From Eledone cirrhosa (taxonomy: Eukaryota), in contig CAXHJY010000940.1 of NCBI GenBank assembly GCA_964016885.1, forward strand, positions 25,264 through 89,263: 64,000 nt of DNA, written 5' to 3'. The notes under the pieces were generated by a model. It was not told the DNA's origin, ran no database searches, and saw only the letters and a program-made list of their open reading frames with translations. Positions within the stretch are counted from its first letter, which is position 1; every line of letters starts with the position of its first letter. Positions 21,247 to 58,699 of this stretch are shown one piece after another. The position numbers and the translations under genes were made by a program.

Positions 21247-21269
21247 GACATTATGCCGCGCACGTCCAT

Positions 21270-22855
21270 TCCGACAAAACTGGCAATCTATATCAAGTGG
21301 AGCGCAGTACTTACCATCAACTACTACATAATGCTGTAACTAAGGATTACCGTAAAACTAATCGGTGCGTCATCAATGAAATCAACGATGCTGGGTTTAA
21401 AATCCCCTCTGATCTCAACATCCTGGACCGAACCGAACCTCTGGATGCAACAAGGAACATTGTCGTTTTATCCAATTCGACATCAACAATTACTACTCCC
21501 CCATCACTTTACCACTTCTCCTTAGAGCTATCAATTTCGCTAAAACACTCACAGTGGTTAAGGATTTCGAAGTTGATGTCATCCTCAATGCCCGTAAGTC
21601 GGTGATTAATTTCGACGACTCTACTTGGATAAAAAAATCCAATAGTACCCCATTCGACGTGAGTATGGGGGCCAGCGATTCTGCGGAGGTTACTGATCTT
21701 ATCGGCCTTTTCCTTCTTTTCTCTATCAAGGACGAATTCCCCAACGCGGGCGGTGGTTTGTACCGTGATGATGGTATGTTGACCATGACTAAGTGCGGAC
21801 CTCGTGCTTGCGACAGGTTCAGAAAAGAACTCACAACCTTCTTTAAAGGCTTCAACCTCTCTATACAGGTTGAGGCCAATCTCTCGGTCGTTAATTACCT
21901 CGACGTTACCCTCAATTTATCGAATGGCTTGCATTACTCGTATAGAAAGCCGAATGATACGCTTAATTACATAAGTAAGCATTCTAACCATCCTGCCAGC
22001 ATAACCAAGAACCTGGAAAGAAACGTTTCTTTGAGGCTTTCCCGTCTATCTACTAACGAGCATATTTTCAACGACCATTCCATTTATTACAATGAAGCTC
22101 TTGCTCGGAGTGGATTTGTCGATAAGGTAGCATATACAGAGTACGCAAATAGACCTAGAAGAAATAGATCCCGTCGCATTTGTTGGTATAACCCACCATA
22201 TAATATGGAGGTGGCCACACCATTAGCTAAGATCTTTCTATCCCTTATTACGAAGCATTTTCCCCCTACACATAAATATAGTAACATTTTTAATAGAAAT
22301 ACTATTAAAATTCCTTACTCTACGATTCCTAACCTTGCACATAACATCACAGCTTCAAATTTAGCTAAACTACCTAGCCATAGGAATACGTGCAACCATG
22401 TAGTTAGTACTAACTGTAAATGTAGGAATCGGGTTGATTGCCCCCTATCCGGGAAAGGCCTCTCTAGTAACATTGTCTACAAATGTAAGGTTGAAACACC
22501 CACGTCCGGTAGGGCCTACATAGGGTTAACCGCCAATAGATTCAAGCAGCGTCTTTACATGCATACCCATTCTTTTCGTTACCCTCTAAGAAGGAATATG
22601 ACGTGACTTTCAGCTTATATCTGGAGTCTAAAAGACAACCACACCCAATATAAGTTACACTGGGAGATCCTAGCTAGGGCTAGATCGTATAACGGAAATA
22701 AAAGACCATGTGACCTCTGCGCCGCTGAGGCCCTGGAAATACTCTACGCCACAGACCCCATCTTAAACAAAAAATCTGGGGCAATTTCGGCTTGTAAACA
22801 TAAATTGCACAAAACTTTCCTGTATTACAGCCCCACATTATACCCTAACGGCTAG
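21270..22855 (+). pseudogene. PLE RT + GIY-YIG polyprotein remnant
   Basis: An upstream frame (DKTGNLYQVERSTY...TEPLDA) joins the main frame at about 21449 through a frameshifting internal deletion. The main frame reads CKCRNRVDCPLSG...IVYKC...YIGLTANRFKQRLYMH, has an in-frame TGA at 22604-22606, then continues LSAYIWSLK...WEIL...CDLCAAE...ILNKK...ACKH to TAG at 22853-22855. Confidence 0.9.
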
Positions 22856-23033
22856 TACGATCTATACGTGGATATTTTACGTCTTGATGTGGTAGCTAAG
22901 TATATGTTATGTTTATACCATTACTTATTTGCACAGGGAACGTTTCCACGAACCAAAGTATCGTCTTCCTGTCTTCCTCCGGTTGCAACGTTTTTTGAAA
23001 TATCCACTTCTGCGTTTACAGATTGACTTTGTT

Positions 23034-23084
23034 AGTTTCAGAAGATCCCGTTAAGGGTGAAAGCAGCAATTCTTTGCTTAAACT
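23034..23084 (+). ncRNA. Degenerate type-I hammerhead ribozyme in the PLE 3' UTR
   Basis: AGTTT-CAGAAGA-T.CCC gttaa GGG.T-GAAA-GCA..TGC-TT-AAACT. Stems I, II and III pair. The core has one substitution (CAGAAGA for CTGAAGA). Confidence 0.65.
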
Positions 23085-23117
23085 TTAATCTGTTATTTTA
23101 ATAAATATATATATATA

Positions 23118-27498: not shown

Positions 27499-27552
<54 letters not shown>

Positions 27553-27577
27553 ATATCTATCTATCTATCTATATATA

Positions 27578-28132
27578 TAACAAAGGAATTGTGGTAAGGA
27601 GTCAGATGGACCATAACGCACCAGAGTACTCAATACTTAGGGTAGTAGAGTGAGAAATAGGAAAAAGTATGACCCCGACGGCAGAGCTCAAGCGTTTCGA
27701 CGGCTATTTCTGGACTAAATTAGAATTTTTAGCCTGGTAAATAAATAGCCGAACTTGTCAAGGGGGTACTTCCTTATATGGGAAGATTGTAGTTGTAAAG
27801 AGGATTGGTTAAAATTTGTTGTAAACACAAATAAGTCTATCATGGCATATACATATACATATTACTTTCAACGCTTGACCGCACCACTTACTCCCCTATT
27901 GTTCTACAGGCAAGTTCAGCCACCCCTACCTCCCACCAAATGCCATGATAGACTTATTTGTGTTTACAACAAATTTTAACCAATCCTCTTGACAACTACA
28001 ATCTTCCCATATAAGGAAGTACCCTCTTGACAAGTTCGGCTATTTATTTACCAGGCTAAAAATTCTAATTTAGTCCAGAAATAGCCGTCGAAACGGCTTG
28101 AGCTCTGCCGTCGGGGTCATACTTTTTCCTAT
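27578..28132. mobile_element. Family A fold-back element (inverted arms of about 190 bp around a 90-bp spacer) in (TA)n
   Basis: 27657-27848 is a near-perfect reverse complement of 27940-28131. The left arm extends further, to the family 3' end at 27578. Confidence 0.85.
28021..28117 (+). ncRNA. Full type-I hammerhead with U3-A8 core and GUC site (family A); mirror copy at 27672-27767 (-)
   Basis: CCTC-TTGACAA-g..CGGCTATTT...AAATAGCCG.tc-GAAA-CGGC ttgagctct GCCG-TC-GGGG. Predicted cleavage is after C28112. Confidence 0.7.
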
Positions 28133-28285
28133 ATCTATATATATATAACGAAGGAAGTGTGGTAAGGAACCAGGTGCACCATACATAACGCACCAGCGTA
28201 CTCAATACTTAGGGTAGTAGAGTGGGTAATAGGGAAATGTTCAAGACCCTGACGGCAGAGTTCAAGCCGTTATACATATATAAAT

Positions 28286-28335
28286 GTGATGAATGAAGAC
28301 AGATATAAATATCTGTCTTCAAGAAACCACTGGTA
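28286..28335 (+). ncRNA. 5'-damaged hammerhead-like motif
   Basis: gTGATGA-A-TGAAGACAGATAT aa ATATCTGTCTTCA-A-GAAA-CCACTGG-TA: 13-bp stem II, with the 5' strand of stem I missing. Confidence 0.5.
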
Positions 28336-28367
28336 AATGAAATAATTATCTTATGTTGTTTATTACA

Positions 28368-28410
<43 letters not shown>

Positions 28411-28449
28411 GTTTACATATATATATATATATATATAGATATATATATA

Positions 28450-28645
28450 TAGGAACAAGTAAGACCCCGACGGCTGAGCTCAAGCCGTTTCGACGGCTAA
28501 TTCTGGACCAGAATTAGCCGTCGAAACGGCTTGAGCTCAGCCGTCGGGGTCTTACTTGTTCCTATTACCCACTCTACTACCCTAAGTATTGAGTACTTTG
28601 GTGCGTTATAGTCCACCTGGTTCCTTACCACATTTCCTTCGTTAT
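28450..28645. mobile_element. Family A fold-back; further copies at 10519-10612, 13733-13868, 28146-28271, 46338-46515 and 58394-58577
   Basis: A palindrome of about 55-bp arms centred near 28507, then the tail ...TTGAGTACTTTGGTGCGTTATAGTCCACCTGG...CGTTA-(TA)n. Confidence 0.8.
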
Positions 28646-28736
28646 ATATATATATATATATATATATATACGTGTTTTGCAACGGGTCACTTTGTGGCTC
28701 AATGGAAAGTTAATAAATTAAATAATCAGAGCTATA

Positions 28737-34627: not shown

Positions 34628-35156
34628 GAATTTTTTAATATAAGGAACTGTTTCTTTGTTTATTCATTATTTTATTAATTTATAATTATATATATATAAT
34701 TATATATATAATTATATATATAATTATATATATATAATTATATATATATAATTATATATATATAATTATATATATATAATTATATATATAATTATATATA
34801 TATATAATTATATATATAATTATATATATAATTACATATATAATTATATATATAAATATATATAATTACATATATAATTATATATATATATAATTATATA
34901 TATATAATTATATATATAATTATATATATATAATTATATATATATAATTATATATATATAATTATATATATAATTATATATATATAATTATATATATATA
35001 TAATTATATATATATATAATTATATATATATATAATTATATATATATAATTATATATATAATTATATATATATATATATATAATTATATATACATATATT
35101 ATTATATATATAATTATATATATAATTATATATACATATATAATTATATATATATA

Positions 35157-35613
35157 ATACAGCAGCACAGACTCCACTACAGCAATGAAGAGGCGGATTT
35201 TCAGGTCTCTACGAAGGTCCGACTTCCACACCGATCTCAAGCTGTGGCACGCCGCCCAGGCCTTGCTCTTCCTCTCAACCACATCATCTTCCGTATTCCC
35301 AATCTTTGCTCCCAAATACAGGAAGTCGTCAACCAATTCCAGCGGCTTCCCGCCTACATTAGTGATCCCAACTGAGGTTGGCTGGACATGCTCACCGACA
35401 TCCAGAGTTGACATTGCACTCAGTGCTCCTTTGGGAGCCCCTACATGGACACACTAGAAGAGGAAGACCAAGGTTAACATATGTTGATGCCCTAAGGACA
35501 GACACTGGTCTGTTGGAGATGCAGGATATGGCAGCGATAATGAGGGACAGAGACCGCTGGAGAGAACTCGTTCATGGATCTCGGGAATTTTACCCGCCTT
35601 AGATAGATAGATA
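35157..35613 (+). mobile_element. RTE-clade LINE of the same young family, 5'-truncated with inversion
   Basis: 35157-35369 is the reverse complement of 53386-53597. 35371-35602 encodes the C-terminus LAGHAHRHPE...RGRPRLTYVD...DRDRW, followed by a (TAGA)n tail. Confidence 0.92.
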
Positions 35614-58349: not shown

Positions 58350-58394
<45 letters not shown>

Positions 58395-58699
58395 TAACAA
58401 AAAGGGTGTTGTAAGATACCAGGTGGACCATAACGCACCAGAGAACTCAATACTTAGGATAGTAGAGTGGGTAATAGGAAAAGAGTCAGGATGCCGACGG
58501 CTCAGCTCCAGCCGTTTCGACAACTAGATCCGAAATGGCCGGAGGTCAGCCGTCAGGGCCCTGCCTTTTTTCCTATATAGTTATCTTAATTCCGTATTTT
58601 GGACAATCTACAACCTACGTCCTTCGGTCTTCATATTACTAACTATGTAAAATACCGTTCGATGATGACGCGCTTGACTCATGTTATTCTTACTTAACA

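Follow-up and report, generated by a model that had tools for sequence, protein, structure and literature searches.

A hammerhead motif with variable core positions 3 and 8 at the pseudo-LTR end of a candidate Hydra-clade Penelope-like element in Eledone cirrhosa

TTGACAA stands in place of the hammerhead core CTGANGA in both arms of a fold-back within the 64,000-nt window (the whole stretch of Eledone cirrhosa DNA analysed here), raising the question of whether the core pair between positions 3 and 8 has been exchanged in an active ribozyme and what kind of element carries it. The preliminary description had read the motif as a hammerhead in which U3-A8 is a rare compensatory replacement for C3-G8. 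We located the full motif at 28023-28116 in the right arm of the fold-back, where that description had placed it, and the arms and the parts of the motif are as follows.

~27854-28132 (+): right arm, pseudo-LTR 3′ end of subfamily A, 5′-truncated and tail-less, followed by (TA)n; its 5′ boundary was set by eye against locus L002
27577-27848 (-): left arm, inverted and more truncated, core at 27761-27755, with a tail of ~80 nt at 27577-27653
28023-28026 (+): stem I 5′ strand CCUC, pairing with 28113-28116; pair probability only ~0.2 in the free ensemble
28027-28033 (+): core U3 U4 G5 A6 C7 A8 A9
28034-28089 (+): stem II region of 56 nt, with G10.1-C11.1, a UU/U internal loop, a 9-bp helix and a 33-nt insert containing a 7-bp hairpin
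G28034-C28089 (+): the G10.1-C11.1 pair
UU 28035-28036 and U28088 (+): UU/U internal loop, unpaired
28037-28045 / 28079-28087 (+): 9-bp helix of stem II
28054-28060 / 28069-28075 (+): inner hairpin of the stem II insert, 7 bp
28090-28093 (+): G12 A13 A14 A15.1 (GAAA)
28093-28097 / 28107-28111 (+): stem III, 5 bp, with a 9-nt loop containing the palindrome GAGCUC
28110-28112 (+): GUC, with C17 at C28112; predicted cleavage site after C28112, from hammerhead numbering
28113-28116 (+): stem I 3′ strand GGGG

The motif has a type I architecture, with its three stems (I, II and III) meeting in a junction that is open at stem I, and the conserved core letters U4 G5 A6 A9, G12 A13 A14, A15.1-U16.1 and H17 are all present, in support of the type I hammerhead with a GUC site that had been proposed. 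Both TTGACAA cores were found (28027-28033 on the forward strand and 27761-27755 on the reverse). GAAA, the full 5-bp stem III, GUC and a GGGG pairing back were all located in the right arm; the left arm, in correction of the earlier account, is short of one G in stem III (GAAACGC). The 9-bp helix, previously taken to follow the core directly, is separated from it by G10.1-C11.1 and the UU/U internal loop. Stem I holds a U·G pair arising from a C>T change at 28025, where C is found in 27 of 30 subfamily-A copies. A Watson-Crick 3/8 pair is present as U-A in the window copy and is missing from sister subfamilies C1/C2, G0 and B1.

Folding places the constrained hammerhead structure 1.3 kcal/mol above the MFE and predicts that stem I extends further and contains an internal loop. 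G10.1-C11.1 can form in all 29 rows compared and, as a lone pair beside the UU/U loop, has a probability of 0.05. The stem III hairpin reaches -6.5 kcal/mol and a self-duplex through the palindromic loop III -26.9 kcal/mol, such that an intermolecular duplex is possible. The C at position 7 makes possible a competing helix between the core and the base of stem II, in which UUGAC (28027-28031) pairs with GUCGA (28087-28091) in the MFE and hides the core; this helix is found in the MFE of subfamily-A copies and is absent from the A7 or U7 copies folded. The weak stem II base, the competing helix and the low probability of stem I in these models count against efficient cleavage.

The expectation that standard searches would overlook the family was borne out by Rfam, which returned no hammerhead match over the window at the gathering score (the matches listed were AT-repeat and palindrome noise) and none at E up to 10 over 27500-28700, so such searches do miss the motif. 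Rfam also misses other PLE-type motifs in the window (23034-23075). When the descriptor was loosened to a Y3/R8 core and stems with minimum lengths of 4/6/4 bp, the sole match in the window was at 28027, while one match each was obtained in 4 of 150 block shuffles and reversed-pattern controls had no matches in the genome.

The window locus is a 5′-truncated inverted pair of copies, an arrangement common for this Penelope-like element (PLE). Positions 27935-28135 are 98-99 % identical to the top 30 genome matches, 28005-28135 matches both of the 303-bp direct repeats that flank an ORF at locus L031, and the left arm matches the right at 98 % over 196 nt, with its tail also matched. Folded together, the two arms form one long duplex that abolishes the hammerhead; as they would pair with each other the window copy is probably inert, and we consider it very improbable that it acts in vivo. 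The preliminary description had also listed diverged copies in the window in which stem III pairing is largely kept. Those at 13744, 28523, 46472 and 58518 are not hammerheads but 3′ halves lacking the core; the stem III letters are identical in 13744, 28523 and 58518, which amounts to conservation and not covariation, and 46472 has a C·A mismatch. Fold-back junctions of sister-subfamily 3′ halves occur in the window at 28449-28645, 10515-10604, 46322-46515 and 58377-58549. At 28287-28360 (+) a further hammerhead family, with CUGAUGA, a long stem II and GAAACCACUGGUA, is represented by its 3′ end, damaged at position 3 in the window and intact at loci L010 and L061. A second, more distant Hydra-type PLE (DKT, RT and GIY-YIG at the C-terminus) occupies 21250-23105 (+) and ends in a hammerhead-like fold at 23034-23075 with A at position 4 (CAGAAGA) and U10.1·U11.1; as this core was found in 12 places among the fetched loci, some of them overlapping, A4 looks fixed in that family. 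LINE-type reverse transcriptase ORF fragments appear in the ORF list at 35004-35453 (-) and 53190-54320 (-).

The identity of the motif as the end of a PLE pseudo-LTR (pLTR) is a point overlooked in the preliminary description. A search of the genome, which is 3.0 Gb in size and rich in (TA)n, gave 1,133 candidates, 40 of which were scored, with top matches at 98-99 % identity. At L031 the two 303-bp repeats (98 % alike) lie 3,096 bp apart, each ends in the motif, and between them is a broken ORF on the same strand with RWR, DKT and RT motifs. Direct pLTR repeats around one RT-EN ORF were found at L031, L032 and L033, and the motif lies at the 3′ end of the pLTR in sense orientation. The tandem or inverted 5′-truncated copies and optional tail of the PLE layout were likewise found, the window arms included. 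[quoted passage not shown] Hydra-clade PLEs have been defined by an RWK motif, DKT, a CxCx5C linker, a C-terminal GIY-YIG without CCHH, and CxxC with CxH, are generally below 3 kb and insert into (TA)n (PMC8557442). The element period of 3,096 bp is slightly above this size and its flanks are (TA)n. Since the RWR/DKT, CxCx5C, C-terminal GIY-YIG, CxxC and CxH motifs match the definition, the element reads as a Hydra-clade PLE, judged by eye from domain motifs, layout and targets, and the motif's identity as a hammerhead homologue within a PLE pLTR is close to certain.

A Naiad PLE was ruled out by DKT in place of DKA and by an EN with GIY-YIG at the C-terminus and not the N-terminus. A non-LTR retrozyme (short non-coding tandem repeats with hammerheads) was also rejected, the copies being dispersed truncated ends of a coding element. 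Beside the baits, within the fetched loci L031-L151, we observed at least eight other canonical CUGANGA hammerhead families in (TA)n-rich nests, with 35 matches in 549 kb, some of them duplicated. Other short U3-A8 hammerhead-like motifs with GAAACCGGUA occur at L037 (reverse strand, ~2175) and L149 (~2504) and are unrelated in stem II to the family of the window motif.

The states of positions 3 and 8 were tabulated with exact patterns, which cover the whole genome and are biased to young copies. U3-A8, with 2,361 exact matches, is the family norm and not a rare state as had been supposed, and position 7 takes all four letters among the first 100 of these matches listed. The first 100 of 555 matches to the subfamily singled out in the preliminary description have U3 in 99 and A8 in 99. 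Cores with a letter other than U3 gave 633 matches, and among the first 100 listed 88 were CUGAGAA (C3·A8) and three CUGAGGA; the C3·A8 subfamilies comprise roughly 560 exact-match copies. G8 was found in 72 matches, combined with U3 in 57, C3 in 13 and A3 in two. With the positions left free, two G8 groups hold up as genuine subfamilies. G8 is present in 24 of 32 copies of the U3·G8 group G0, as counted by hand after 7 B-type rows of 39 were set aside. Among the first 100 of 197 B-type matches, likewise counted by hand, 12 copies have G7, 10 of them with G8 and three with C3; the ~84 copies with U7 include 3 with G8 and none with C3. Copies with U3·G7 exist as subfamily I.

Taken across the genome, the large uncompensated C3·A8 and U3·G8 subfamilies and the scarcity of C3-G8 fail to support the tight 3/8 compensation anticipated earlier. 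U·G, U-A, C·A and C-G all occur as subfamily states in one genome, with intact natural examples at L223 (G0, U·G), L002 (A, U-A), L132 (C1, C·A) and L200 (B0, C-G), and positions 3 and 8 are without tight covariation. No subfamily was found in which position 3 is a purine or position 8 a pyrimidine. U4, G5, A6 and A9 vary only sporadically where left free: among the first 100 of 197 B-type matches, counted by hand, U4 was changed in five, G5 in five, A6 in none and A9 in six, all scattered. In the contigs of one run (X1), possibly the source of the assembly and thus no independent support, the only core substitution at 5 % or more was at N7 (28031), together with a gap of 1 nt at 28025 that we took to reflect the C3 subfamilies. 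We infer that selection weakly favours pyrimidines at position 3 and purines at position 8 and acts strongly on the rest of the core. Certain candidate results were rejected. A Fisher test in which 21 of 33 loop columns and 0 of 10 core columns varied (p = 0.0005) is circular because U4, G5, A6 and A9 are fixed by the search patterns; a group labelled B2 = U3·G8 was a selection artefact whose stem type is mostly UUGAUAA, and the choice of baits likewise enriches scattered G8 or C3 rows within clades A, E and C; and the depth in run X1, 56-fold higher for the 3′ half than for the core, was rejected as a measure of copy number.

To order these states we compared the subfamilies with an older relative, O, the family of the fragment at 13744, for which three copies with the 5′ half were present among the 40 fetched loci. 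Their cores are CUGAUGA (L288), CUGGUGA (L289) and, next to a deletion, UUGAUGA, so that C3-G8 is found in two of the three intact copies; a search pattern for intact outgroup copies had no match. The Hydra-clade motifs listed in File S2 of PMC8557442 are all CUGANGA. As both O and these motifs carry C3-G8, U3-A8 is derived from it by a true double change, as the preliminary description had held. In trees built with positions 3, 7 and 8 masked, and resting on 214-292 columns for the pLTR or 450 for the EN region, the subfamilies form a ladder (94 of 158 rows kept). The outgroup tree (44 rows, including two outgroup copies) has the outgroup outside (100/99), G0 with U·G at the base of the A-type clade with the A8 groups nested inside (100/98), and C1/C2 with C·A between U-A groups; the tree of the EN region agrees on this order, with lower support. 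The C3 rows cannot sit on one side of a branch (27 versus 37 rows, p-AU 6.6e-5), a test using the 64 of 100 rows kept after thinning the largest groups and leaving out 9 rows with inverted or chimeric upstream sequence, 7 B rows and 4 sporadic ones, and position 3 would therefore have changed at least twice while A8 stayed. An alternative root that joins the outgroup to B0/B1 also passes the AU test (p-AU 0.32). Which way some of the steps ran thus depends on the root within the family, and the U·G of G0 may be either a retained intermediate or a reversion. For the lineage that leads to subfamily A and on beyond it, we infer the succession C-G > U·G > U-A > C·A > U-A. The age gradient of the groups (rho = -0.90) is only suggestive, as the groups were ordered by the analyst.

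Selection on the fold was assessed in 29 distinct rows, in which 92 % of cells are paired with 36 both-side changes and none of 500 shuffles was as high, although the shuffle test ignores relatedness and the stem II changes amount to about three events. Compensatory changes are shown in stem II, where both sides change at 4 of 10 pairs across subfamilies, one of them (10.1-11.1) hinging on the alignment of the outgroup rows. Stems I and III have scarcely any variation between subfamilies, and RNAalifold recovers stems II and III and not stem I. Signs of cleavage were sought in the 5′ ends of 89 incidental tail-bearing copies, none of which lies at the cleavage site; 30 are intact past the core, a class inflated by partner pLTRs of the baits, none breaks in the 5′ core, and for 32 the break falls within the 3′ part of loop II or on the 3′ strand of stem II. 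This pile-up in loop II, by the 3′ strand of stem II, suggests a site of reverse transcriptase stalling or snap-back.

Tolerance at the 3/8 pair is said, from work by Przybilski and Hammann in 2007, to depend on the surrounding stems. Natural hammerheads with C3-G8 to U3-A8 covariation have been described (Perreault et al. 2011, PMC3088659), with the covarying pairs stated to be active in vitro; like these the motif here carries the natural exchange, but the text available presents isolated examples and not an evolutionary series of single-change intermediates. A screen of a type III hammerhead found low activity for every single or double mutant of the region other than G3-C8, which would include U3-A8 among the poorly active (PMC9901934). 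U3-A8 in PLE pLTRs is already in print: ~1,300 minimal hammerheads of this kind are reported from the Cercyon PLEs of Schistosoma mansoni (Cervera and De la Pena 2014, PMC4209133), which further counters the notion of rarity. The family here resembles Cercyon in the U3-A8 swap within the pLTR, in more than 1,000 dispersed and mostly truncated copies, and in a long helix II and a palindromic helix III region, and its loop III self-duplex is like that of dimer-forming PLE motifs (PMC4209133). Cercyon motifs are however minimal and thought to be dimeric, whereas the full stem III here could allow folding as a monomer, and the accessible text reports no C·A or U·G subfamilies for Cercyon (PMC4209133).

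The hammerheads of Hydra-clade PLEs share with this one the sense strand, a position near the element 3′ end and type I topology, and the hosts share the RWK-like, DKT, CxCx5C and C-terminal GIY-YIG motifs and (TA)n targets (PMC8557442, Craig et al. 2021). Outgroup O shares the U10.1·U11.1 base with many Hydra motifs. Those in File S2 have CUGANGA, a stem III of 3-4 bp and a short stem II, unlike the family here, whose core pair is U3-A8 (or U·G, C·A), whose stem III has 5 bp and a palindromic loop of 9 nt, and whose stem II region spans 56 nt and contains a UU/U loop; the 3′ signature of the family was not found in the supplement text of PMC8557442 that was searched. The Anolis PLE Poseidon similarly has a pLTR hammerhead, an optional 3′ tail, AT-rich targets and no trace of ends at the cut site, but belongs to another PLE clade and has a canonical C3-G8, with an activity that has been shown and occurs only with protein, while catalytic mutants still insert in vitro (PMC11167929). 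In the literature outside subscription journals we found no C3·A8 or U3·G8 subfamilies, no activity for them and no compensatory series, and a term search for these core states in the text available for PMC11014351 gave no matches.

We favour, as fairly probable, a hammerhead at the PLE pLTR end that is predicted to cut the RNA of the element after C28112, likely weakly or with protein assistance, and that is likely dispensable for transposition; detectable cleavage of subfamily-A RNA under some condition is also rather probable. With subfamilies carrying all four versions of the 3/8 pair, the hammerhead is likely real but loosely constrained and its predicted cutting weak or optional. The PLE transcript would fold the motif in each pLTR, the cut after GUC would be slow or occur only with the element's protein bound, and reverse transcription may start at one of two downstream points to give tail-less and tailed ends, a proposal made because the Anolis PLE hammerhead needs protein and its catalytic mutants still insert (PMC11167929). 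Optional cleavage would allow mismatched cores to spread, and weak selection would account for the return to U-A. A more ambitious reading, which we hold as tentative, is a fossil record of an evolving catalytic pair (C-G, U·G, U-A, C·A, U-A) in which the mismatched ribozymes were active, rescued by protein or by a register shift. Such a shift in CUGAGAA, with G7 pairing with C3 as G8 and the spare A preceding stem II, would leave the C3·A8 subfamilies compensated after all. C3 does occur almost only with G7 (88 CUGAGAA and three CUGAGGA in the first 100 listed), but this link may be a single inherited event and U3·G7 copies exist as subfamily I. Moreover the CUGA turn would be one base shorter, which should distort the core, and we regard the register shift as unlikely.

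A serious rival, which we rank as possible but doubtful, is that the motif descends from a hammerhead, has lost catalysis and is retained as a folded cis-element, for instance an RT binding or pausing site, in which 3/8 drifts as catalysis is irrelevant. It would fit the large C3·A8 and U3·G8 subfamilies, the lack of cleavage-site 5′ ends in the 89 incidental copies, the restriction of all 3/8 changes to transitions (the commonest neutral class) and the insertion of Anolis PLE catalytic mutants (PMC11167929), and the 32 of 89 breaks at loop II/stem II imply that stem II plausibly matters in another way; amplification of C3·A8 to roughly 560 copies fits a dead ribozyme equally well. Drift is harder to reconcile with U4, G5, A6 and A9 changing only sporadically while N7 takes all four letters, with the lack of subfamilies that carry a purine at position 3 or a pyrimidine at position 8, and with a C·A state followed by a return to U-A. 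The opposite view, that of the preliminary description, is an efficient ribozyme that works on its own, with U3-A8 as a full substitute for C3-G8 and with processing of the element RNA dependent on cleavage; the full 5-bp stem III and long stem II, the described in vitro activity of U3-A8 ribozymes (PMC3088659) and the cleavage of fungal PLE hammerheads with a large helix III as monomers (PMC4209133) are in its favour. Uncompensated subfamilies nevertheless reached hundreds of copies, the stem II base is weak and faces a competing fold, and no breakpoints lie at the cut site among the 89 incidental copies, so we judge it quite improbable. Although the region is full of palindromic junctions, a chance arrangement or fold-back by-product is refuted, at near certainty, by the recurrence of the same full motif, which is present in over 2,000 copies and in each of the two pLTRs of a full-length element, and by the canonical core of the outgroup; shuffles moreover yield only the 4 matches in 150.

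The value of the family lies in its natural series of core states and not in the U3-A8 swap, since both single-change states occur as natural subfamilies, one with hundreds of copies. Hammerhead search descriptors could be widened to Y3/R8 cores with long stem II inserts. PLE hammerheads show wide conservation, yet insertion in the one in vitro system can do without them (PMC11167929); natural copies such as these could show whether transposition success tracks ribozyme activity. Were the motif indeed a fossil record of an evolving catalytic pair, each intermediate would have been fixed in a lineage that transposed, and the natural subfamilies would form a ready-made panel on the purpose of Penelope hammerheads.
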